From contig CAVPQS010000077.1 of the NCBI GenBank assembly GCA_963707485.1, positions 646-64,645 on the forward strand: DNA of 64,000 nucleotides. The letters are read 5' to 3'. The notes beneath the pieces were generated by a model. The model was not told the origin of the DNA. It worked only from the letters and a program-made list of their open reading frames with translations, and made no database searches. Positions 8,455 to 56,831 of this stretch are shown here, one piece after another. The number at the start of each line of letters is the position of its first letter. Within the stretch, counting starts at the first letter, position 1. The position numbers and the translations under genes are program-made. The stretch is from an uncultured bacterium (lineage in GTDB: Bacteria; Zixibacteria; MSB-5A5; CAIYYT01).

Positions 8455-8528
<74 letters not shown>

Positions 8529-10998: not shown

Positions 10999-12366
10999 AT
11001 GCCAAAGTTGAATAACATTCTTGAAGCCATCGGCAATACGCCGCTTGTGCAACTCAGGCGCATGATGCCGGAAGGCTCCGCCGATGTCTTTGCCAAGCTT
11101 GAATTCATGAATCCGGGTGGTTCGATCAAGGACCGCATGGCGCGCTATATTATCGAAGATGCCGAGAAGCGCGGCGAACTCAAATCTGGGATGATCGTAG
11201 AAAACACCTCGGGCAATACCGGTGTTGGTGTCGCCATTGTGGCCGCAGTAAAAGGATACAGGGCGATATTCACGATTCCCGACAAGATGTCGGATGAGAA
11301 GATCAACCTGCTCAAAGCTTTTGGCGCCAAGGTCATTGTTACCAAGACTAATGTGCCGGCCGACAGCCCGGAGTCGTACTACGAGACGGCCAAGCGCATC
11401 CATCGCGAAAACCCGGGGTCGTTCTACCTCAATCAATATCATAACCCAAAGAACATCGAGGCTCATTACAATCTCACAGGTCCGGAAATCTGGAAGGACA
11501 TGGACGGCAAGATAGACTATTTCGTCGCGGGTATCGGCACAGGCGGGACATTGTCAGGAGCCGGCAAGTTTCTCAAGGAGAAAGACAAGAATATCAAGAT
11601 CATTGCTGTTGATCCGTACGGGTCGGTGTTTTACGACTTCTTTAAGACCGGCAAACCGGGCAAACCGGAGGTCTATAAGGTTGAAGGCATCGGCGAGGAC
11701 ATGATCACCCAAGCGATGGATTTCTCGGTTGTCGACGATATGATTCAGGTCAACGACCGCGACTGTTTTCTGACCGGACGCGAGTTGACGACGAAGGAAG
11801 GCATATTTGCCGGCGGATCTTCGGGCGCAGCGGTCTGGGGTGCGATTCAAGTGGCTAAGAAGGTCGGTCCCGGGAAGCGGATTGTTGTTGTTCTGCCGGA
11901 TAGCGGCACGCGCTATCTTTCAAAGATGTTCAACGAGACCTGGATGCGCGATTATGGATTTCTCGAAGAGCGCCCGGAGCTTGGAACGGTACAGCAAATA
12001 CTCGACCGCAAGAACGGTCAGGAGATTATTTCGGCAGCCAACGACGACACGCTTCACAATGTGATCGATAAGATGAAGAAGTTCGATATCTCGCAGTTGC
12101 CGGTATTAGAAGCTGGAGAATTGATTGGATTGATTCGCGAATCCGATTTACTGAGCCTGATGGTAGCGGGCCGATATTCGCCGTCACATCCGATAAGAGA
12201 TGCGGTCGTTCACGATTATCATATGGCGGCGCGCTCGATGCCGGTTTCGCGGTTGGCGGAGTTATTCTCAAAATCGAATGCAGATGTCGTTTTTGCTGTT
12301 GATAACCGCAAGCTGGTTGGTATCTTGACCAAGATTGATTTAATCGACTATCTCGCAGGAGCATGA
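10999..12366 (+). CDS. Cystathionine beta-synthase (PLP cysteine-synthase fold plus C-terminal CBS-domain pair)
   Basis: GNTPLV...GGSIKDR...SGNTG and a C-terminal roughly 120-aa CBS pair (DTLHNVIDKM...VLE..GLIRESDLL..). 455 aa. Confidence 0.85.
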   Translation: MPKLNNILEAIGNTPLVQLRRMMPEGSADVFAKLEFMNPGGSIKDRMARYIIEDAEKRGELKSGMIVENTSGNTGVGVAIVAAVKGYRAIFTIPDKMSDEKINLLKAFGAKVIVTKTNVPADSPESYYETAKRIHRENPGSFYLNQYHNPKNIEAHYNLTGPEIWKDMDGKIDYFVAGIGTGGTLSGAGKFLKEKDKNIKIIAVDPYGSVFYDFFKTGKPGKPEVYKVEGIGEDMITQAMDFSVVDDMIQVNDRDCFLTGRELTTKEGIFAGGSSGAAVWGAIQVAKKVGPGKRIVVVLPDSGTRYLSKMFNETWMRDYGFLEERPELGTVQQILDRKNGQEIISAANDDTLHNVIDKMKKFDISQLPVLEAGELIGLIRESDLLSLMVAGRYSPSHPIRDAVVHDYHMAARSMPVSRLAELFSKSNADVVFAVDNRKLVGILTKIDLIDYLAGA

Positions 12367-13535
12367 TTTTGAAAGATTACGTACCTTCGCAGCATCAATT
12401 TGAGACAAACGCCATTCATGCCGGTCAACCGCCTGATCCGAGCACTGGCGCAATCACTTTTCCGATTTACGCAACTTCGACGTATGTGCAGGAAGGCATC
12501 GGCGGCCACAAGGGATTCGAATACTCTCGGACGGCGAATCCGACGCGTTGCGCGTTGGAAGAGTGCCTTGCGTCTCTTGAGGGCGCAAAGTACGGGCTAT
12601 GTTTCGCCTCCGGTATGGCGGCAACTTCAAATATTCTGACGCTGCTCAAGGCCGGCGATCATGTCGTGTGTTCAGATGATCTTTATGGCGGGACCCCGCG
12701 CGTCTTCAACAAGGTCTACGCCGATTTCGGCATAGAGTTTACCTATGTCGACACCTCATATACAGATAGAATTGAGAGCGCAATCAAGCCGAACACGAAG
12801 ATGGTCTTTATAGAGACTCCAACCAATCCGATGTTGAAGATTACCGAAATTCGGGCTGTTGCGACGCTGACGAGCAGGAAGAACTTGATATTAGTCGTCG
12901 ACAACACTTTTGCCTCGCCGTTTTTGCAGCGTCCATTGGATTTGGGAGCAGATATTGTTGTGCATTCGACCACGAAATATATAAATGGACATGCCGATTC
13001 AGTTGGCGGGGCGGTACTGACTTCGAACGAGAAGTGCCATGAGCGAATGAAGTACTGTCAGAATGCAGTCGGCGGAATTATGGGACCGTTCGACGCGTTT
13101 CTTACCATGCGCGGCGTCAAGACGCTGGCTCTGCGAATGGAACGCCAGTGCGAAAACGCAATGAATCTTGCGATTTACCTGGAGAGCCATCCCAAGGTGG
13201 AACACGTCTACTACCCGGGCCTCGAGTCATTTCCACAACACAAGATTGCCGAGCGCCAAATGCGGCTGTATGGCGGAATGATTTCGTTTGTGATTAAGGG
13301 AGGACTCGAATCCGCCAAGAAGATGTTGGCAAACACACCAATTTTTGGTCTGGCGGAGTCGCTGGGCGGCGTCGAGTCGCTGATCCAGCATCCCGCGATG
13401 ATGACTCATGCTTCGGTTGCCAAGGAAGTTCGCGACAAGATCGGCATCAGCGATGGTCTTGTGCGTGTCTCGGCCGGAATCGAAGCCTACGAGGACCTTA
13501 AGCGCGCATTAGATGTCGGCTTTAGCTACGTATAG
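12363..13535 (+). CDS. Cystathionine gamma-lyase/gamma-synthase family PLP enzyme (reverse transsulfuration)
   Basis: AIHAG...YSRTANPTR...VVHSTTKYINGHAD (PLP-Lys) motifs. Overlaps the CBS stop by 4 bp. Confidence 0.85.
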   Translation: MILKDYVPSQHQFETNAIHAGQPPDPSTGAITFPIYATSTYVQEGIGGHKGFEYSRTANPTRCALEECLASLEGAKYGLCFASGMAATSNILTLLKAGDHVVCSDDLYGGTPRVFNKVYADFGIEFTYVDTSYTDRIESAIKPNTKMVFIETPTNPMLKITEIRAVATLTSRKNLILVVDNTFASPFLQRPLDLGADIVVHSTTKYINGHADSVGGAVLTSNEKCHERMKYCQNAVGGIMGPFDAFLTMRGVKTLALRMERQCENAMNLAIYLESHPKVEHVYYPGLESFPQHKIAERQMRLYGGMISFVIKGGLESAKKMLANTPIFGLAESLGGVESLIQHPAMMTHASVAKEVRDKIGISDGLVRVSAGIEAYEDLKRALDVGFSYV

Positions 13536-17183: not shown

Positions 17184-18692
17184 TTAACACGTAGAGCAGG
17201 GCGCGGGGCCTCCCGAGAAAATGTAATTGATAAGATACACGGCGTCGGAGATTGTGACAATGCCATTGCAGTCGGAATCGCCGGCGCTCAGCGGACTCGG
17301 CGCCGGACCGCCGGCAAAGATGTAGTTGATGAGATAAACTGCGTCGGAGATCGTGACGATGCTGTTGCCGTCGGCGTCGCCGCAGATGGGTCCGATTGGA
17401 TCGCAACTATCCGGGATGCCGTTTGAGTTGGTGTCGGGGACGACGCCATAGGCGATTTCGCAACTGTCCACTAAACCGTTCGAATTACAGTCGGTGATTG
17501 CAATATCCGGCACGATTTTGTAAATCTGGCCGCTTTGATAAATAAGGTACATTTCTCCGTAGTTGTCTTCACCAAACGAGACGAGCGAGGACGTAGAGGT
17601 CAATCCGAGTTCTGCGGTTCGATCCTGAAATTCTGTTTTACTTATGCCGTCATATCGGAACGACCAGACCGTGCCTTGACAATAGTCGCCGAAGAAATAG
17701 GTGCCCTGAAGATCGGGGATGGCGCAGCCGCTGTACGAATAACCGCCGGTCACGGAGCAACCGGAACCATGGCTGTATTCGTGTATGGGATCAATGGTTA
17801 TGCCGAGAGGATCGCAGTTAACGGAAGGATTGTAGCAATGTGCGCCCTCGCGCAATCTCCAGCCGAAGTTGATGTTGCCGGAGTCTGAAGCGGGGCGCCA
17901 GTCGATTTCTTCCCATTGATTCTGCCCGACATCAGCAATAAAGAGGTTGCCGGTCAGCCGATCGAAGCTGTTTCGCCAGGGATTGCGCAGGCCCCAATAG
18001 AATATTTCCTGTTGTTGAGGTCCGCCGAAAAACGGGTTACTGGGCGGAATAGCGTATGGTGATCCGGAATCGACGTCAATTCGGAGCATCTTGCCGAGCA
18101 TAGTATTCAAGTTTTGGCCGTTGTTGTTGGGGTCACCGCCGCCGCCGCCGTCACCGACGCCGATATAGAGGTAGCCATCTGGGCCGAAGCCAATCCAGCC
18201 GCCATTGTGGTTGTCTTCAACAGGGTGGCTGATGGTAAATAACGGGGTTCCGCTGGCGGGATTGGCGCTATCCGGGTTGGCGCCTGAGACTTGCCAGCGA
18301 GTTAGTACGTTGTTGCCGGCAGAATTTGTGTGGTAGGTAAAGAAGTAGCCATTGTTGGCGTAGTTCGGGTGAAACGCGAGCCCAAGCAAGCCTTCTTCGC
18401 TCGAAGTACTGACGGGACTGATCGTGTGGAACGGTTTGGGGTACATCGCATGAGTCGTGAGGTTCATTATTCGAATGTCGGCACGTGCAGCAGTTCCTCC
18501 CGACCCACGTTGCTCGACAATGAAGAGTCGCTGCAAGTCCCCCGGCGGTGATGTCGCAAAAACCGGGCGGGTCAAACTGCTGATGATCAAATCGGCCTTG
18601 ATCGGAGTTTGAGCTTCGAGAAAATCAGGTGGTGCAATTATCAAAGTGAGTATTGTGAATATGATGAGGTGGGCCAGATTTCGCGATTGCAT
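17184..18692 (-). CDS. PQQ-dependent sugar dehydrogenase (soluble glucose/sorbosone dehydrogenase family) with two C-terminal dockerin-like repeats
   Basis: GLLGLAFHPNYANNGYFFTYHT matches the sGDH family. Signal peptide present. The C-terminus reads CGDADGNSIVTISDAVYLINYIFAGGPAP, repeated twice (dockerin type I-like). Confidence 0.75.
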   Translation of the reverse strand: MQSRNLAHLIIFTILTLIIAPPDFLEAQTPIKADLIISSLTRPVFATSPPGDLQRLFIVEQRGSGGTAARADIRIMNLTTHAMYPKPFHTISPVSTSSEEGLLGLAFHPNYANNGYFFTYHTNSAGNNVLTRWQVSGANPDSANPASGTPLFTISHPVEDNHNGGWIGFGPDGYLYIGVGDGGGGGDPNNNGQNLNTMLGKMLRIDVDSGSPYAIPPSNPFFGGPQQQEIFYWGLRNPWRNSFDRLTGNLFIADVGQNQWEEIDWRPASDSGNINFGWRLREGAHCYNPSVNCDPLGITIDPIHEYSHGSGCSVTGGYSYSGCAIPDLQGTYFFGDYCQGTVWSFRYDGISKTEFQDRTAELGLTSTSSLVSFGEDNYGEMYLIYQSGQIYKIVPDIAITDCNSNGLVDSCEIAYGVVPDTNSNGIPDSCDPIGPICGDADGNSIVTISDAVYLINYIFAGGPAPSPLSAGDSDCNGIVTISDAVYLINYIFSGGPAPCSTC

Positions 18693-21855: not shown

Positions 21856-23766
21856 TTGAGTCAAAGAGCCGATTTGAACAGGAGGAATTCGATGGATCCC
21901 AATGAAATTCGGGAGTTCCTGAATCATATTGAATTATTCAAAGACCTCGACCACGATGAAAGAGAGTTGCTCGTTGCCGGCATTGTGGTGCATGAATACG
22001 AAGCGCACACGCTGCTTTTCGAAGAGAACACAGCGCGTTTAGAGATGTATATCATCTTTCAGGGGGAGATTGAGCTGCTTAAGCGGACGCCTTACGGCGA
22101 GGACGCGCGGCTGACGGTATTTTCACGGTTTGATTTCTTTGGCGAAGGCGCAATCATGGAAGACTACCCGCACAACACCTCAGCGCGAACTCTGCTCAAA
22201 TCGACTATTCTCACTATCAGCCGCGATCGTTTTTACGAGTTGTCGCAAGAGCGGCCGACAATCGGACTCAAGTTAATCTCCCGAATCGCCCGGGTTATAT
22301 CGCGGCGGATGCGTCAGGCCAGCACGCGAGTGGTAAACGTTGCCGCGCAGTACGTATCGGGTCAGACGCGGTCAGAGCACGACTTGCTCGGTGACCGCGA
22401 GGTGCCGTCGGAATATCTCTACGGTATTCAAACCATGCGAGCACTGGAAAACTTCAATATCAGCGGAATCTCGCTGGCATACTATCCGGATTTTATCAAT
22501 GCACTTGCCATGGTCAAGATGAGCGCTGCGAAAGCGAATATGGAACTGGGGCTGCTCACCGAGCCGGTGGGGCAAGCGATCATACAGGCTTGCACCGAGA
22601 TCAGGCACGGCCGTTGGCATACGCAATTTGTCGTGGACATGATTCAGGGCGGCGCCGGGACCTCGACCAACATGAATGCGAATGAAGTTATCGCCAATCG
22701 TGCCCTTGAAATCCTCGGGTATGAACGCGGCGATTACAAGCATTGCCATCCCAATAATCACGTAAACTTGTCGCAGTCGACAAATGACGCTTATCCAACG
22801 GCATTAAAGATCGCACTCATCAACGCCAACGGCAACCTGGTGGCAGTGTTGAAGAAGCTGATTGCATCTTTCTACGCGAAAGCGGAGGAGTTCAAGGGCG
22901 TCATCAAAATGGGGCGAACGCAGTTGCAGGATGCTGTGCCGATGACCATGGGGCAGGAGTTTGAAGCTTATGCGGTGATGCTGGAAGAAGAAATAGATCG
23001 ATTGAATCAGAATGCCTCACTCTTCCTGGAAGTCAATATGGGCGGGACGGCGATTGGCACTGGGATCAATGCCGATCCGCGCTATTCGAGCATTGTGATC
23101 AGCCATCTTCGCGAAATCACCGGTATGGATATAAAGCTCGCGAAAAATCTGGTGGAAGCGACGCAGGATACGGGCGCCTTCGTGATGTATTCGTCGGCGA
23201 TCAAGCGGCTGGCAGTAAAGCTTTCAAAGATTGCCAACGACCTGCGGCTGTTGTCATCGGGTCCGCGCGCGGGGCTCAATGAGATCAATTTGCCGCCGAT
23301 GCAGCCGGGATCGTCAATTATGCCGGGCAAGGTCAACCCGGTCATTCCTGAAGTGGTGAATCAGATTGCCTTTCTGGTAATCGGCAATGACCTGACTGTA
23401 ACCATGGCTGCCGAGGCCGGCCAGTTGCAGCTAAATGTAATGGAGCCGATCATAGCTCACAGCATATTCGAGTCAATCGAAGTGCTCAAAAACGGCATGT
23501 TTACTCTCAAGCACCGCTGTATTGACGGGATTACGGCCAATATCGAACATTGCCGCAAGACAGTGCTTAATTCAATTGGATTGGTGACGGCTCTTAATCC
23601 TGTTTTAGGGTATGAAGCTTCGACCGAGTTGGCAAAGGAAGCGCTTCGGACGGACCGCAGCGTCTACGACTTGGTTTTGGAAAAAGGTCTCCTTTCGCCG
23701 GCGCAGCTTGACAAACTCTTATTACCGGAAAACATGATCCAACCCATCGATCGAGATAATGCTTGA
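21856..23766 (+). CDS. aspA: Aspartate ammonia-lyase (fumarase/aspartase class II) fused to an N-terminal cyclic-nucleotide-binding domain
   Basis: Residues 15-160 or so read ...LFKDLDHDERELL...FGEGAIMEDYPHNTSARTL..ISRDRFYEL..RIARVISRRMR, a Crp-type cNMP-binding domain. The rest matches aspartase: LLGDREVPSEYLYGIQTMRALENFNISG ... GSSIMPGKVNP signature. Confidence 0.8.
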   Translation: MSQRADLNRRNSMDPNEIREFLNHIELFKDLDHDERELLVAGIVVHEYEAHTLLFEENTARLEMYIIFQGEIELLKRTPYGEDARLTVFSRFDFFGEGAIMEDYPHNTSARTLLKSTILTISRDRFYELSQERPTIGLKLISRIARVISRRMRQASTRVVNVAAQYVSGQTRSEHDLLGDREVPSEYLYGIQTMRALENFNISGISLAYYPDFINALAMVKMSAAKANMELGLLTEPVGQAIIQACTEIRHGRWHTQFVVDMIQGGAGTSTNMNANEVIANRALEILGYERGDYKHCHPNNHVNLSQSTNDAYPTALKIALINANGNLVAVLKKLIASFYAKAEEFKGVIKMGRTQLQDAVPMTMGQEFEAYAVMLEEEIDRLNQNASLFLEVNMGGTAIGTGINADPRYSSIVISHLREITGMDIKLAKNLVEATQDTGAFVMYSSAIKRLAVKLSKIANDLRLLSSGPRAGLNEINLPPMQPGSSIMPGKVNPVIPEVVNQIAFLVIGNDLTVTMAAEAGQLQLNVMEPIIAHSIFESIEVLKNGMFTLKHRCIDGITANIEHCRKTVLNSIGLVTALNPVLGYEASTELAKEALRTDRSVYDLVLEKGLLSPAQLDKLLLPENMIQPIDRDNA

Positions 23767-23852: not shown

Positions 23853-25532
23853 ATGGGTAACAACCTGCGCTATAATGTAGCTGATCAGCGCCTTTCATAC
23901 AGTGGTCCGGTGGTAGAATTCGGATTTGAAAGGGACCGGGTAATCGAGTTTAATCACCGCCATGGTGCGGCGCTCGGGAATTATGAACTTCAATTGGAGT
24001 CCTGTTCCATACTAAATCTGTGTGATCGGATCAATCATACATCAAACCTCGGGGCATTGCGCAATCGCCAAGTGCGGCAATCAGTTATTGTTTCGGCTGC
24101 GATGTCAGCGATTTCGGTTGGTCTCCATGGACGCGGCAGCCTAAATGCGGTGCCCAAGCATCTGGTGACTTCCGAACTCAAGAACAATCTCAAACGCGCC
24201 AATGACCGCACGGCTGCGCAGGTCATGTCGGAAGTCCTGCAGACGACGACCGAGACATTGCCGGTTGGCGAAGAGGTCATTATCGAATCGGCGATTACCG
24301 AGGGTGTGCGCGTAAAACCGGGTGTTGAAGCGGGCGGCAATCCGACAATTGCGGTCGGCGCAGTTTTTGGCAAGCCGGAACATCGGGCGAAGTACGGACT
24401 TAAACTTCCGCAAAATGTATCCCTGCTATCGCTCGGCAATGACGTCATCGACGGTACGACCAAGTCAGTTGAGGGCTCGCACTCGAGCTTCACAGCTATG
24501 GTCGTGACCGAATCGGGGGTTAAACGTCACTTGCCTGATACTTACGTTCAGCGCTGGTTGGCTGGTGTTCATTTCGAAGAATTCAACCCGCGCGAAACGA
24601 AACTGGTCGAGATCGCAGAAATTTTGTCGGGCGCCTACGGTTATTCGTCCAAGGATAAGCTCAGCACATTTTTCCTTGATCGGCCGCGACACACCTATGC
24701 GATGGATATTCTCAACAAAGCCGGAGTGGCGACGCCTTTTGATAAAGACGGCGATTTGATGCCGGGAATAGTGCTGGGATTTCAGGGTCTGGCGTTTCCG
24801 GATGGACGGTCGCTGTCATCGATGATCGGTGAAATCGGCGGTTCGGCCGAGTGGGCCGTAGGAGTATTGCCGCTCGTTTGGCGCGGCGGCCAGGCAATCG
24901 GAATGCTGACCAGCCAATCCTCGCTGACGCGCAAAGATCTGTCGCCGGAGGAATTGTGGAAGGAACGCTTCCACTTCACCGAAGAAGAATTCATGCTGAT
25001 TCAAGATGCACGCTTCCAACGCAAACCATACTTCACGATTAGCGACATTCTCGACAACCCGATGGCAGGCGGCATCAGCGCCTTTGGCGCGATCACGGAC
25101 AATTTTTTCATTCCTTATCTGGAGGGTGTCCGCGCCGACGCAGAGCTCAACCGCGTTAGTGTCAACGTCCTGACAGTGAATTCGATTGGGATGGTTGATG
25201 TGTGGCAGATGGTTTATCGCTGCAACAATAATCTCGCAGAAACTGCCAGTTTAATGGTGTCACCAAAAGAGAATTTTGAACATCTTTGCGGAGCCGAGCT
25301 CGAAGAGGCAATCGGCAAGATGCTCAACGACAAGCGAACTCGCGAACGCTATTTGATATTTTTCGGTAATGAGTATTATCCCGCGCTGATTCCGATCCAT
25401 GATAAGATGGTTCTGCTATTGAAAGCAGTGCACGGCCTAATAGAACGCGGCGCGTGGACAGAGAAGGACCGCGAGATAATAAATTGCACTCAGCGATTGG
25501 CTCCGGAGCTGTTCGTGAACTCGGTGTCGTAA
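23853..25532 (+). CDS. glpX: Class II fructose-1,6-bisphosphatase (GlpX family) with N- and C-terminal extensions
   Basis: LGNDVIDGTTKSVEGSHSSFTAMVV is close to the GlpX DPIDGTT motif, and DRPRH and FDKDGDL match GlpX KPRH and IPDGDVA. At 559 aa it is well above the usual 330 or so. Confidence 0.6.
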   Translation: MGNNLRYNVADQRLSYSGPVVEFGFERDRVIEFNHRHGAALGNYELQLESCSILNLCDRINHTSNLGALRNRQVRQSVIVSAAMSAISVGLHGRGSLNAVPKHLVTSELKNNLKRANDRTAAQVMSEVLQTTTETLPVGEEVIIESAITEGVRVKPGVEAGGNPTIAVGAVFGKPEHRAKYGLKLPQNVSLLSLGNDVIDGTTKSVEGSHSSFTAMVVTESGVKRHLPDTYVQRWLAGVHFEEFNPRETKLVEIAEILSGAYGYSSKDKLSTFFLDRPRHTYAMDILNKAGVATPFDKDGDLMPGIVLGFQGLAFPDGRSLSSMIGEIGGSAEWAVGVLPLVWRGGQAIGMLTSQSSLTRKDLSPEELWKERFHFTEEEFMLIQDARFQRKPYFTISDILDNPMAGGISAFGAITDNFFIPYLEGVRADAELNRVSVNVLTVNSIGMVDVWQMVYRCNNNLAETASLMVSPKENFEHLCGAELEEAIGKMLNDKRTRERYLIFFGNEYYPALIPIHDKMVLLLKAVHGLIERGAWTEKDREIINCTQRLAPELFVNSVS

Positions 25533-54626: not shown

Positions 54627-56831
54627 TTGGATCACATCTATCTTGACTACAACGCCACCACGCCGATTCACCCGGAAGTTGCCGAGGCAATGGCCCCATT
54701 CCTGCGCGATCATTTTGGCAATCCATCCAGTTCACACTGGTTTGGCGTGCAGACGCGAAAAGCCGTTGAAACGGCGCGCGCCCGGGTTGCGGCGATGCTT
54801 AGCTGCAATTCGGACGAGATAATTTTCACTTCCGGCGGAAGCGAATCGGACAATTTTGCGATTGCCGGTTACGTACTCAAAAATCGCTCGCGAGGGAATC
54901 ACATCGTGACATCGCAGATCGAGCATCCGGCGGTGCTGGAGATTTGCCGGTACCTTGAGGGGCAAGGATTTCAGGTAACTTACTTGTCGGTAGACGGCAC
55001 TGGAATGGTCGATGTCGAAAAATTGCGCAGAGCACTTAGACCAACGACGATTCTTGTTTCAATCATGCAGGCGAACAACGAGGTCGGCACAATTCAGCCT
55101 GTCAAAGAAATAGCGGAGATTTGTCATGAGCGGGGAGTCGCATTTCACACTGATGCCGCGCAGGCAGTCGGAAAGATTCCAGTCACGATTGCTGCAACGG
55201 GAGCTGACTTAATCACTATCGCCGGGCACAAACTCTATGCACCAAAGGGAATCGGGGCGCTTTACGTTCGTCGCGGGATCGAATTACAGAAACTGATTCA
55301 CGGCGCCGCGCACGAACAGAATCTTAGAGCCGGAACGGAAAATGTGCTCGAAATCGTGGGTCTGGGGAAAGCCTGCGAAGTAGTCGGCCGCGAGATGGCA
55401 AAACAGGCGCCGGTCATGGCGCGACTACGCGATCTACTTGAAAATGAATTGGAATCGCGGCTGCCGCAGTGCCAGATCAATGGCGACCGCGCAAGGCGAT
55501 TGCCAAACACTCTTTCCGTTTCGTTTCCTGGGATTGAGGCAAATGCGATCATCTCGGAATTGGAAGAGGTCGCATGTTCGCCCGGGGCTGCTTGTCACTC
55601 CGACAAAGTGATGATGTCGCACGTACTGGAGGCGATGCAGGTTCCCGTCGAGTATGCGATGGGGACGATTCGGTTTTCGGTTGGCTACATGACGACTGAG
55701 GCTGAAATTCGCGTGGCGGCTGATGCGATTGAGGCAACCATCACCCGACTCGCGCCTTCGGGGATGAGTACAATTCGCGTCGCTGACAGCGATGAAGAAA
55801 TTCGCCTGACAAAGTACACGCATGGACTTGGCTGCGCGTGCAAATTGCGTCCGCAGGCACTTGAGAAGATTCTCGCCCAATTGCCTCGAACTACTGATGC
55901 GAATGTCCTGGTTGGATCGGAGTCATCAGATGACGCGGCGGTTTACCGGTTGAGCGAAGAGATGGCGGTTGTGCAGACAGTTGATTTTTTCACACCGATA
56001 GTCGACGATCCATATCATTTTGGCGCAATCGCGGCGGCCAATGCCTTGAGCGACATTTATGCGATGGGAGGCAAGCCGTTGTTTGCGCTAAGCGTGGTGG
56101 GGTTTCCATCGAATCGGTTGCCGATGCAGGTGTTGCAGCAGATTCTCAAGGGCGCCGCGGATAAGGCTGCGGAAGCGGGTATCAACATCATCGGTGGCCA
56201 CACAGTAGACGACACTGAGCCGAAATACGGCCTTGCGGTCACGGGAATCGTGGATCCCAAAACGATCAAACGCAATAATACTGCACGAGTTGGCGATCTG
56301 CTAATCTTGACCAAACCGATCGGCACCGGTATTATCTCAACGGCAATTAAGCGCCAGATGGTTAATAACGGATTGCGCGATCGCGTCATCAAGATCATGA
56401 GCACGCTAAATGCAAGCGCCGCTGATGTTATATCGCGTTACGATGTGTCGACGTGCACGGACGTTACCGGATTCGGGCTCCTTGGCCATCTCAGGGAAGT
56501 GACTGTCGGAAGCGGCGTAACGGCGCGAGTCGATTCAAAGCGAGTTCCGATCATTGATGATGCAGTTGCACTGGCATCATCGGGTGTTGTGCCGGGCGGA
56601 ACCGAGAACAACCTTGAATACGTGTCTCCCATTGTGACTTGGGGTACAGGTGTTTCGCGCGTTATGAAAATACTGCTGGCAGATGCTCAGACATCGGGCG
56701 GGCTTTTGATGGCCGTCGCGAAGGATCAGTCTGGGGCCATGATGCGCGCGTTAATTGAAAAAGGAGTGGTTGATGCTGCGATAGTCGGAGAAATCACCGG
56801 ACGGGGTGACGGGAAAATCTCAGTCGTCTAA
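54627..56831 (+). CDS. selD: Fusion protein: NifS/IscS-like cysteine desulfurase (N-terminal, about 390 aa) plus selenide, water dikinase SelD (C-terminal)
   Basis: N-terminal half: YLDYNATTP...HKLYAPKGIGALYVR (PLP-Lys region). C-terminal half: LTKYTHGLGCACKLRPQALEKIL (Cys-type SelD active site, compared with E. coli GAGCGCK), then the PurM-like fold DDAAVY...GG..DNTE-like. Confidence 0.85.
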   Translation: MDHIYLDYNATTPIHPEVAEAMAPFLRDHFGNPSSSHWFGVQTRKAVETARARVAAMLSCNSDEIIFTSGGSESDNFAIAGYVLKNRSRGNHIVTSQIEHPAVLEICRYLEGQGFQVTYLSVDGTGMVDVEKLRRALRPTTILVSIMQANNEVGTIQPVKEIAEICHERGVAFHTDAAQAVGKIPVTIAATGADLITIAGHKLYAPKGIGALYVRRGIELQKLIHGAAHEQNLRAGTENVLEIVGLGKACEVVGREMAKQAPVMARLRDLLENELESRLPQCQINGDRARRLPNTLSVSFPGIEANAIISELEEVACSPGAACHSDKVMMSHVLEAMQVPVEYAMGTIRFSVGYMTTEAEIRVAADAIEATITRLAPSGMSTIRVADSDEEIRLTKYTHGLGCACKLRPQALEKILAQLPRTTDANVLVGSESSDDAAVYRLSEEMAVVQTVDFFTPIVDDPYHFGAIAAANALSDIYAMGGKPLFALSVVGFPSNRLPMQVLQQILKGAADKAAEAGINIIGGHTVDDTEPKYGLAVTGIVDPKTIKRNNTARVGDLLILTKPIGTGIISTAIKRQMVNNGLRDRVIKIMSTLNASAADVISRYDVSTCTDVTGFGLLGHLREVTVGSGVTARVDSKRVPIIDDAVALASSGVVPGGTENNLEYVSPIVTWGTGVSRVMKILLADAQTSGGLLMAVAKDQSGAMMRALIEKGVVDAAIVGEITGRGDGKISVV

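Follow-up and report, generated by a model that had tools for sequence, protein, structure and literature searches.

The 64,000-nucleotide stretch analysed here (the window) belongs to contig CAVPQS010000077.1 of an uncultured member of the Zixibacteria, and it contains a gene in which a Crp-type cyclic-nucleotide-binding (CNB) domain runs without a break into a complete aspartate ammonia-lyase (aspartase). The open reading frame (ORF) lies at 21856..23766 on the forward strand, as do all of its parts described below, and counts 636 aa from a TTG with no internal stops. An earlier note on this DNA had taken it as one gene with these limits; the frame is indeed uninterrupted, and the start coordinate is to be corrected to 21892. 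The ATG at this position is probably the true start, rather than the TTG at 21856, since a Shine-Dalgarno sequence (AGGAGG, 21880..21885, read directly) stands 6 nt 5' of it, an identical 624-aa product is annotated by NCBI in the metagenome-assembled genome (MAG) assembly GCA_049664025.1, and the homologues share this Met, which is the start in 118/123 of them. The complete coding sequence of the fusion would then occupy 21892..23766 (624 aa plus stop). Residues are numbered in this 624-aa protein, except for the Pfam ranges 46-132, 180-510 and 576-628, which follow the 636-aa numbering.

All three Pfam domains of the protein are above threshold: cNMP_binding (PF00027) at 46-132 with 53.7 bits against a gathering cut-off of 27.5 (E 2e-14), Lyase_1 (PF00206) at 180-510 with 328 bits, and FumaraseC_C (PF10415) at 576-628 with 77.6 bits, the last being the C-terminal domain of the 624-aa product (residues 564-616, 23581..23739). 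The N-terminal region thus passes the profile threshold for the Crp-type domain that had been recognised there by eye. The Pfam scan of the fusion protein returned no helix-turn-helix family (HTH_Crp_2 or the Crp winged-helix DNA-binding domain), and the NCBIfam CRP and FtrB models match the sensor part only, with scores far below their cut-offs.

The fusion is real and widespread. Among 5.8 billion protein clusters (90% identity) with precomputed Pfam domains, the same three domains occur together in at least 120 clusters of 616-656 aa, 70-90% identical, from Zixibacteria, Ignavibacteriales, Melioribacteraceae, Calditrichota and Bacteroidota; sources that name the protein at all call it just "aspartate ammonia-lyase". 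A scan of one genome per GTDB species with patterns taken from the N-domain and the junction gave at least 196 confirmed matches, of which 80 loci were fetched, and extended the architecture in related bins to Kapabacteria, GN15, Rhodothermaceae, Lentimicrobiaceae, Gemmatimonadota and Acidobacteriota, as well as to a small number of bins assigned to Desulfobacterota, Proteobacteria and Chloroflexota, where some of the labels may be unreliable. Every record in the species scan is a MAG, and a cluster look-up for a cultured carrier led to MAG or metagenome sources only. CP070756.1, CP070824.1, OY762428.1 and OY781463.1 are examples of whole genomes in which the fusion is present. In addition, an exhaustive HMMER search with the N-domain alone against 1.84 billion 50%-identity representatives, from which the best 150 relatives were analysed, revealed further fusion lineages whose N-domains are only 37-60% identical and which all run on into the aspartase N-terminus. 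A word-index homologue search with the 158-aa N-domain gave 12 proteins only; over 120 fusions escaped it, although they have long stretches identical to the query, and such searches on short queries can miss obvious relatives.

These data bear directly on the possibility that a small Crp-like regulator gene and aspA had been run together by a misassembly or a frameshift; the earlier note had named a stop or frameshift between the two as what would refute its reading. Both halves lie in a single unbroken ORF of 613-633 aa in about 70 of the 80 loci that were fetched, and the architecture recurs in the at least 120 clusters with invariant junction residues. The other loci either reach the end of their contig or are broken, the latter being L074, which has an in-frame interruption, and L004. 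The three tblastn segments into which L004 (CAVOPW010000014.1, 6001-6480 and downstream) falls are probably due to indel errors of long-read MAG assembly and not the mark of a real pseudogene; at 87% identity, it is the closest of the GTDB homologues. Apart from this one related locus in pieces, only the prior suspicion spoke for an artefact. With the junction free of stops and frameshifts in about 70 independently assembled genomes, such an origin was ruled out, and we regard it as extremely improbable. Moreover, pairwise comparison of 70 full-length species homologues gave median identities of 43% in the N-domain and 74% in the aspartase, and the values for the two halves are correlated (r = 0.65). 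This pattern fits an old fusion inherited as a unit: because the pocket and junction residues are invariant while the N-domain has diverged and the two halves co-vary, long vertical co-inheritance with selection on the pocket is indicated.

The enzyme half comprises residues 158-624 (22363..23763). Its 467 C-terminal residues score 716.8 with the aspA equivalog TIGR00839 of NCBIfam (cut-off 681.2) and are also above the cut-off of NF008909, whereas the fumC model on the same region stays well below its own (473.9 vs 664.75). Among solved structures, the Elizabethkingia aspartase 6wng matches best (E 5e-194, residues 159-618); further aspartases come next, E. coli AspA and Bacillus AspB among them, and the scores of fumarases are much lower. 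The half opens with the N-terminal β-hairpin R-x-EHDLLGDREVP and carries the catalytic SS-loop GSSIMPGKVNP at residues 473-483 (23308..23340), the signature by which the earlier note had identified a class II enzyme, identical in 68/80 species homologues and present as GSTIMPGKVNP in 7 more. Together with the substrate-binding motifs TSTNMN at 257, SQSTND at 294 and RTQLQDA at 342, it is conserved in 68-80 of the 80 homologues. Judging from these models and observed motifs, the aspartate ammonia-lyase of the fusion is intact and would convert L-aspartate to fumarate and ammonium, and the proposed unbroken run into a full class II aspartase is borne out, with Lyase_1, FumaraseC_C and TIGR00839 all past their cut-offs. 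Compared with the class II aspartases of E. coli (AspA, 1jsw), Bacillus YM55-1 (AspB, 1j3u) and Elizabethkingia (6wng), residues 158-624 make a full-length member; these characterised enzymes start at the β-hairpin, while the fusion has 157 extra N-terminal residues that form its sensor domain.

The CNB domain itself (residues 1-121, 21892..22254) is supported by PF00027, by an AlphaFold2 (AF2) model of the N-domain and by Foldseek. In the model of residues 1-175 (mean pLDDT 84), the N-terminal helices lead into an eight-stranded β-roll that contains a short cassette helix (85-88), after which come a B-helix (111-120) and a long C-helix (122-156), the order expected of a CNB domain, and then the two-stranded aspartase hairpin (159-164, 167-172). 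Foldseek against the PDB placed the cyclic AMP (cAMP) receptors GlxR and M. tuberculosis CRP at the top (TM 0.72, root-mean-square deviation about 2.4 Å, 23% identity), with PKG, PKA and other CNB domains at lower ranks and DNR only at ranks 24-25. There were 642 PDB matches at E <= 1e-3, and among the matches listed 50/50 have the CNB fold. We can therefore confidently assign a CRP/GlxR-like fold to the modelled N-domain, which very probably serves as a ligand sensor. The fusion shares with CRP and GlxR not only the fold but also the long C-helix with an RR motif and a domain boundary at the CRP hinge. Indeed, in a MAFFT alignment with the E. coli CRP sequence, the family segment ...SRRMRQASTRVVNVAAQY... 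falls on ...RRLQVTSEKVGNLAFLD..., that is, the CRP C-helix through the hinge, which corresponds to the long C-helix and the junction of about 5 residues in the fusion (residues 122-157, ...RVISRRMRQASTRVVNVAAQYVSG, 22255..22362). Residue 2 of E. coli AspA (1jsw) aligns with fusion residue 156. From the two alignments together, the aspartase takes the place of the CRP winged-helix DNA-binding domain at the hinge with almost no linker. R139, Y154, S156, G157, R160 and the EHDLLG motif are invariant in this region, R139 being found in 78/80 and R160 in 80/80 of the species homologues.

The canonical phosphate-binding cassette of CNB domains reads F-G-E-[LIM]-A-L-x(4)-P-R-[ST]-A-[ST]; its Glu contacts the ribose 2'-OH and its Arg (CRP R82, PKA RIα R209) neutralises the cyclic phosphate. 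The equivalent in the fusion, F82-FGEGAIMEDYPHNTSA-R99 (22135..22188), reads F82-F-G-E85-G-A-I-M-E-D-Y-P93-H94-N-T-S-A-R99. The Gly-Glu pair for the ribose contact is retained as G84-E85, and Ser/Thr hydroxyls are kept after position 94. The residue following Glu85 is Gly (GEG) instead of Leu or Met, and the slot of the Arg is taken by His94 (codon cac, 22171-22173). This assignment follows from the register (Glu +9), and two independent alignments agree on it: MAFFT against CRP, and HMMER of the family profile against solved PKG domains, where 'ddtpHsts' lies over 'DEPRTAS'. Conservation of these positions is strict. Glu85 is found in 123/123 family proteins and 80/80 species genomes, Pro93 in 123/123 and 71/80, and His94 in 123/123 and 77/80, the remaining three having Tyr or Gln and never Arg.

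A second feature sets this pocket apart. Arg49 in the β2-β3 loop (codon cgt, 22036..22038) is family-specific, being present in 123/123 family proteins and 79/80 species genomes where canonical domains have Gly, and in 0/170 non-fusion CNB domains with the cassette Arg that were aligned from the best 150 relatives. It falls in what we take to be the slot of PKA RIα Gly169, by the PfPKG register and the RIα sequence. Gly169 adjoins Asp170, which pairs with Arg209. Where CRP and GlxR have the cassette Arg, the fusion thus has a His and an extra loop Arg, and by alignment the His94/Arg49 pair is a distinctive pocket signature, widespread in the FCB group and neighbouring phyla. Among the best 150 relatives, the pair occurs solely in aspartase fusions or in short fragments ending before the junction. 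Domains of this type on other enzymes were also looked for; every longer His-type match inspected either continues as an aspartase or is a piece of an aspartase fusion that has been frameshifted or cut short, so that all matches of useful length belong to this family. The positive charge would have been relocated rather than lost and the pocket enlarged (GEG for GE[LM]), which could mean either that phosphate binding is kept in a new geometry or that the ligand has changed.

P0140, a 168-aa fragment from the representative library, combines Arg49 with the cassette PRTTSAR and continues into the aspartase start (SEYDMLGSRDIPH); it is the sole fusion-type N-domain found with the canonical Arg. 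P0140 suggests descent from a true cyclic nucleoside monophosphate (cNMP) binder, and may be an ancestral-type lineage that still binds a cNMP. This is of interest for a canonical switch, in which cAMP or cyclic GMP (cGMP) would be bound, His94 and/or Arg49 would neutralise the phosphate and aspartate deamination would follow cNMP levels. Such a switch would also be in line with the Pfam score, with the true cAMP receptors that are the best structural matches, and with the preserved Glu85 and Ser/Thr residues. On the other hand, the change from Arg to His is nearly universal and never reverts in the main clade, the hydrophobic residue after the Glu has given way to Gly, and no cyclase gene was found among the annotated or scanned genes of the window or beside the fusion in the 80 loci. 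The kinetoplastid PKA regulatory subunit, which is cAMP-independent and binds nucleosides, can be read in both directions: replacement of the cassette arginines is the hallmark of its switch from cAMP to nucleosides, and in PKA RIα a cassette-Arg mutant retained cAMP activation with a half-maximal effective concentration only 5-fold weaker, the authors stressing that specificity is not predicted by sequence alone (PMC6440977). In that subunit V, T, A or N stands in for the phosphate-neutralising Arg, the phosphate site is blocked by an additional Glu and the output is a kinase (PMC6440977), whereas the fusion has a His with a compensating Arg nearby and its output is a lyase. On balance, a canonical switch appears rather unlikely to us. 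Of the idea in the earlier note that aspartate deamination had become allosterically responsive to cAMP, cGMP or a related nucleotide, the architecture stands; the response to cAMP or cGMP is unproven, and the invariant His in place of the cassette Arg argues against canonical binding.

Another possibility is that the domain senses something other than a nucleotide. CRP-family sensor domains have switched ligands before, to 2-oxoglutarate, heme and others, and the pocket of the fusion is non-canonical, family-specific and strongly basic (R49, K64, H94, R99, R138, R139). It might therefore bind an anionic metabolite reporting nitrogen or carbon status, such as 2-oxoglutarate (as NtcA does), a C4-dicarboxylate or an amino acid, and so provide feedback or feed-forward control. 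A link between aspartase and nitrogen status exists in E. coli, where PII (GlnB) stimulates AspA activity allosterically in trans (bioRxiv 10.1101/2021.03.01.433382). Nevertheless, Glu85, which is invariant, and the hydroxyls of the cassette are typical of recognition of a ribose-phosphate, and the nearest structures are cAMP receptors and not NtcA, CooA or FNR, with DNR no higher than ranks 24-25. We consider a sensor of this kind, and these candidate ligands, unlikely. Heme sensing as in CooA or DNR was given low weight, as the pocket is polar and basic and DNR ranks low; His94 is presumably not at the position of CooA His77.

The domain might also have lost ligand binding altogether, as have the CNB-homology domains of KCNH channels, and serve only in oligomerisation, stability or partner binding. 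The loss of the key Arg would agree with this, and CRP-type C-helices dimerise and could brace the tetramer. Against it stands the conservation of the pocket: its residues stay the same from phylum to phylum, whereas the remainder of the domain has drifted to about 43% identity, a pattern to be expected of a functional site and not of a scaffold. We consequently hold a ligand-free module to be quite improbable. Since Glu85 and the cassette hydroxyls are kept, a phosphate-bearing, nucleotide-like ligand, cyclic or not, seems most likely, and it may not be a canonical cyclic nucleotide. We propose only tentatively, with more doubt than conviction, that the His94/Arg49 pocket represents a new ligand class for the CNB fold, for instance a non-cyclic nucleotide or nucleoside or a nitrogen- or carbon-status metabolite.

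Taken as a whole, we favour with moderate confidence the reading that the fusion is a ligand-gated aspartase working in the manner of CRP, PKA or MtKat. A small molecule would bind in the β-roll pocket of the N-domain; binding would reposition the C-helix, as it does in CRP, in PKA and in the mycobacterial acetyltransferase that cAMP activates; and the shift of the C-helix would in turn displace the N-terminal hairpin and domain 1 of the aspartase, both of which form part of the shared active sites, so that activity switches. That a ligand binds, that its binding is transmitted and that catalysis is affected are what we infer; as to the sign of the effect, relief of autoinhibition would be our guess. 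The closest functional analogues are the protein lysine acetyltransferases MtKat (Rv0998) as well as MsKat (MSMEG_5458), in which an N-terminal CNB domain on a GNAT enzyme confers direct, allosteric activation by cAMP (PMC5861322). They share with the fusion an N-terminal CNB and a catalytic domain in one polypeptide. The analogy is one of architecture only, the catalytic domains being unrelated (GNAT in one case, a tetrameric lyase in the other) and the reported direct activation by cAMP being a feature of MtKat and MsKat.

Several points weigh against ligand gating. The case for it is built on sequence, models and analogy. The canonical phosphate-binding Arg is missing, which makes nucleotide binding by the N-domain itself uncertain, and the presumed proximity of R49 and H94 derives from alignment to PKA G169/D170-R209 and from the textbook structure. 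The AF2 model of the full-length monomer is of moderate quality only (pLDDT 70.7) and falls below 50 over residues 139-194, at the junction, so that the relative placement and coupling geometry of the two halves cannot be read from it. Finally, no nucleotide cyclase is found among the annotated or Pfam-scanned genes, which are most of those in the 64-kb window.

As a way of regulating an enzyme of central metabolism, the architecture of the fusion is undescribed, although both of its parts come from well-known families and CNB-enzyme fusions have precedents. The earlier note knew of no description, and in the open-access full-text literature, searched by pairing aspartase or Pfam names with cNMP- or cAMP-binding terms, we likewise found no paper on it, which is absence of evidence. 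The statement that aspartases normally have no regulatory domain is fair for the known enzymes, whose regulation, where characterised, is transcriptional or in trans. It should be qualified by the stimulation of E. coli AspA by PII, which likewise puts the enzyme under post-translational control by cell status, with a separate signal protein in place of a fused sensor. A literature search on cAMP-CRP control of E. coli aspA yielded no direct support, and this point is not relied on here. Aspartase links amino-acid catabolism with nitrogen supply and with fumarate and tricarboxylic acid cycle metabolism, and a built-in sensor across several little-studied phyla, in whose members second-messenger biology is almost unexplored, would point to an unrecognised signalling input into central metabolism. 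The altered pocket, with Arg changed to His and a relocated Arg, is a natural experiment in the ligand specificity of the CNB fold, whether that specificity was changed or preserved. If a new ligand class were true, aspartate catabolism in Ignavibacteria, Zixibacteria, Bacteroidales and related phyla would be under direct signal control at the protein level, and the fusion would be the first lyase of central metabolism for which gating by a fused CNB sensor is shown. As a single soluble protein with a simple spectrophotometric assay, it might moreover become a model for CNB-to-enzyme allostery or a part for engineered ligand-controlled aspartases, which are an industrial enzyme class.

The surroundings of the gene vary from genome to genome. 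In the window, its upstream neighbour is a divergent MarC-family gene, and a long GlpX-like ORF follows 87 bp downstream on the same strand. This ORF (23853-25532, +, 559 aa) has a weak partial FBPase_glpX match (35.7 bits, residues 196-361) and, being much longer than the 307-position Pfam model, may encode a divergent or multi-domain GlpX-like enzyme. It is not adjacent to the fusion in L002, the one other genome inspected in detail, and in a complete Zixibacteria genome the flanks of the fusion gene are entirely different. All-against-all clustering of ORFs within ±6 kb in the 80 loci found no conserved neighbour: the largest cluster, from 16 loci, is a large paralogous sensor family, and none of the ORF families containing a window ORF recurs in more than 5/80 loci. 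An operon partner or a nearby cyclase, considered as a clue to the ligand, was accordingly set aside. As none of the neighbouring genes is conserved, control must reside in the fusion protein, a self-contained unit whose fused domain is itself the clue to its regulation. In four of the 80 loci (L006, 9922-10893, -, and three others), an asparaginase-like ORF (MKKLLIVFTGGTFSM...) lies no more than 6 kb from the fusion. It would fit a route from Asn via Asp to fumarate and is too rare to be called conserved. A promoter and terminator scan showed nothing informative near the fusion gene, and an Rfam scan of the window gave a tRNA at 8455-8528 (+) as its sole gathering-level match, with nothing near the fusion gene.

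Three other loci of the window deserve mention. A 734-aa ORF at 54627-56831 (+) combines Aminotran_5 (cysteine desulfurase or selenocysteine lyase-like) with AIRS and AIRS_C (selenophosphate synthetase-like). At 10999-13535 (+), a 455-aa PALP and CBS protein (cystathionine beta-synthase-like) and a 390-aa Cys_Met_Meta_PP enzyme, whose reading frames overlap by 4 nt, look like a transsulfuration pair. Lastly, a 502-aa protein encoded at 17184-18692 (-) carries a GSDH (glucose/sorbosone dehydrogenase) domain and a weak match to Dockerin_1; a dockerin-like module, if real, would be unexpected in this lineage.

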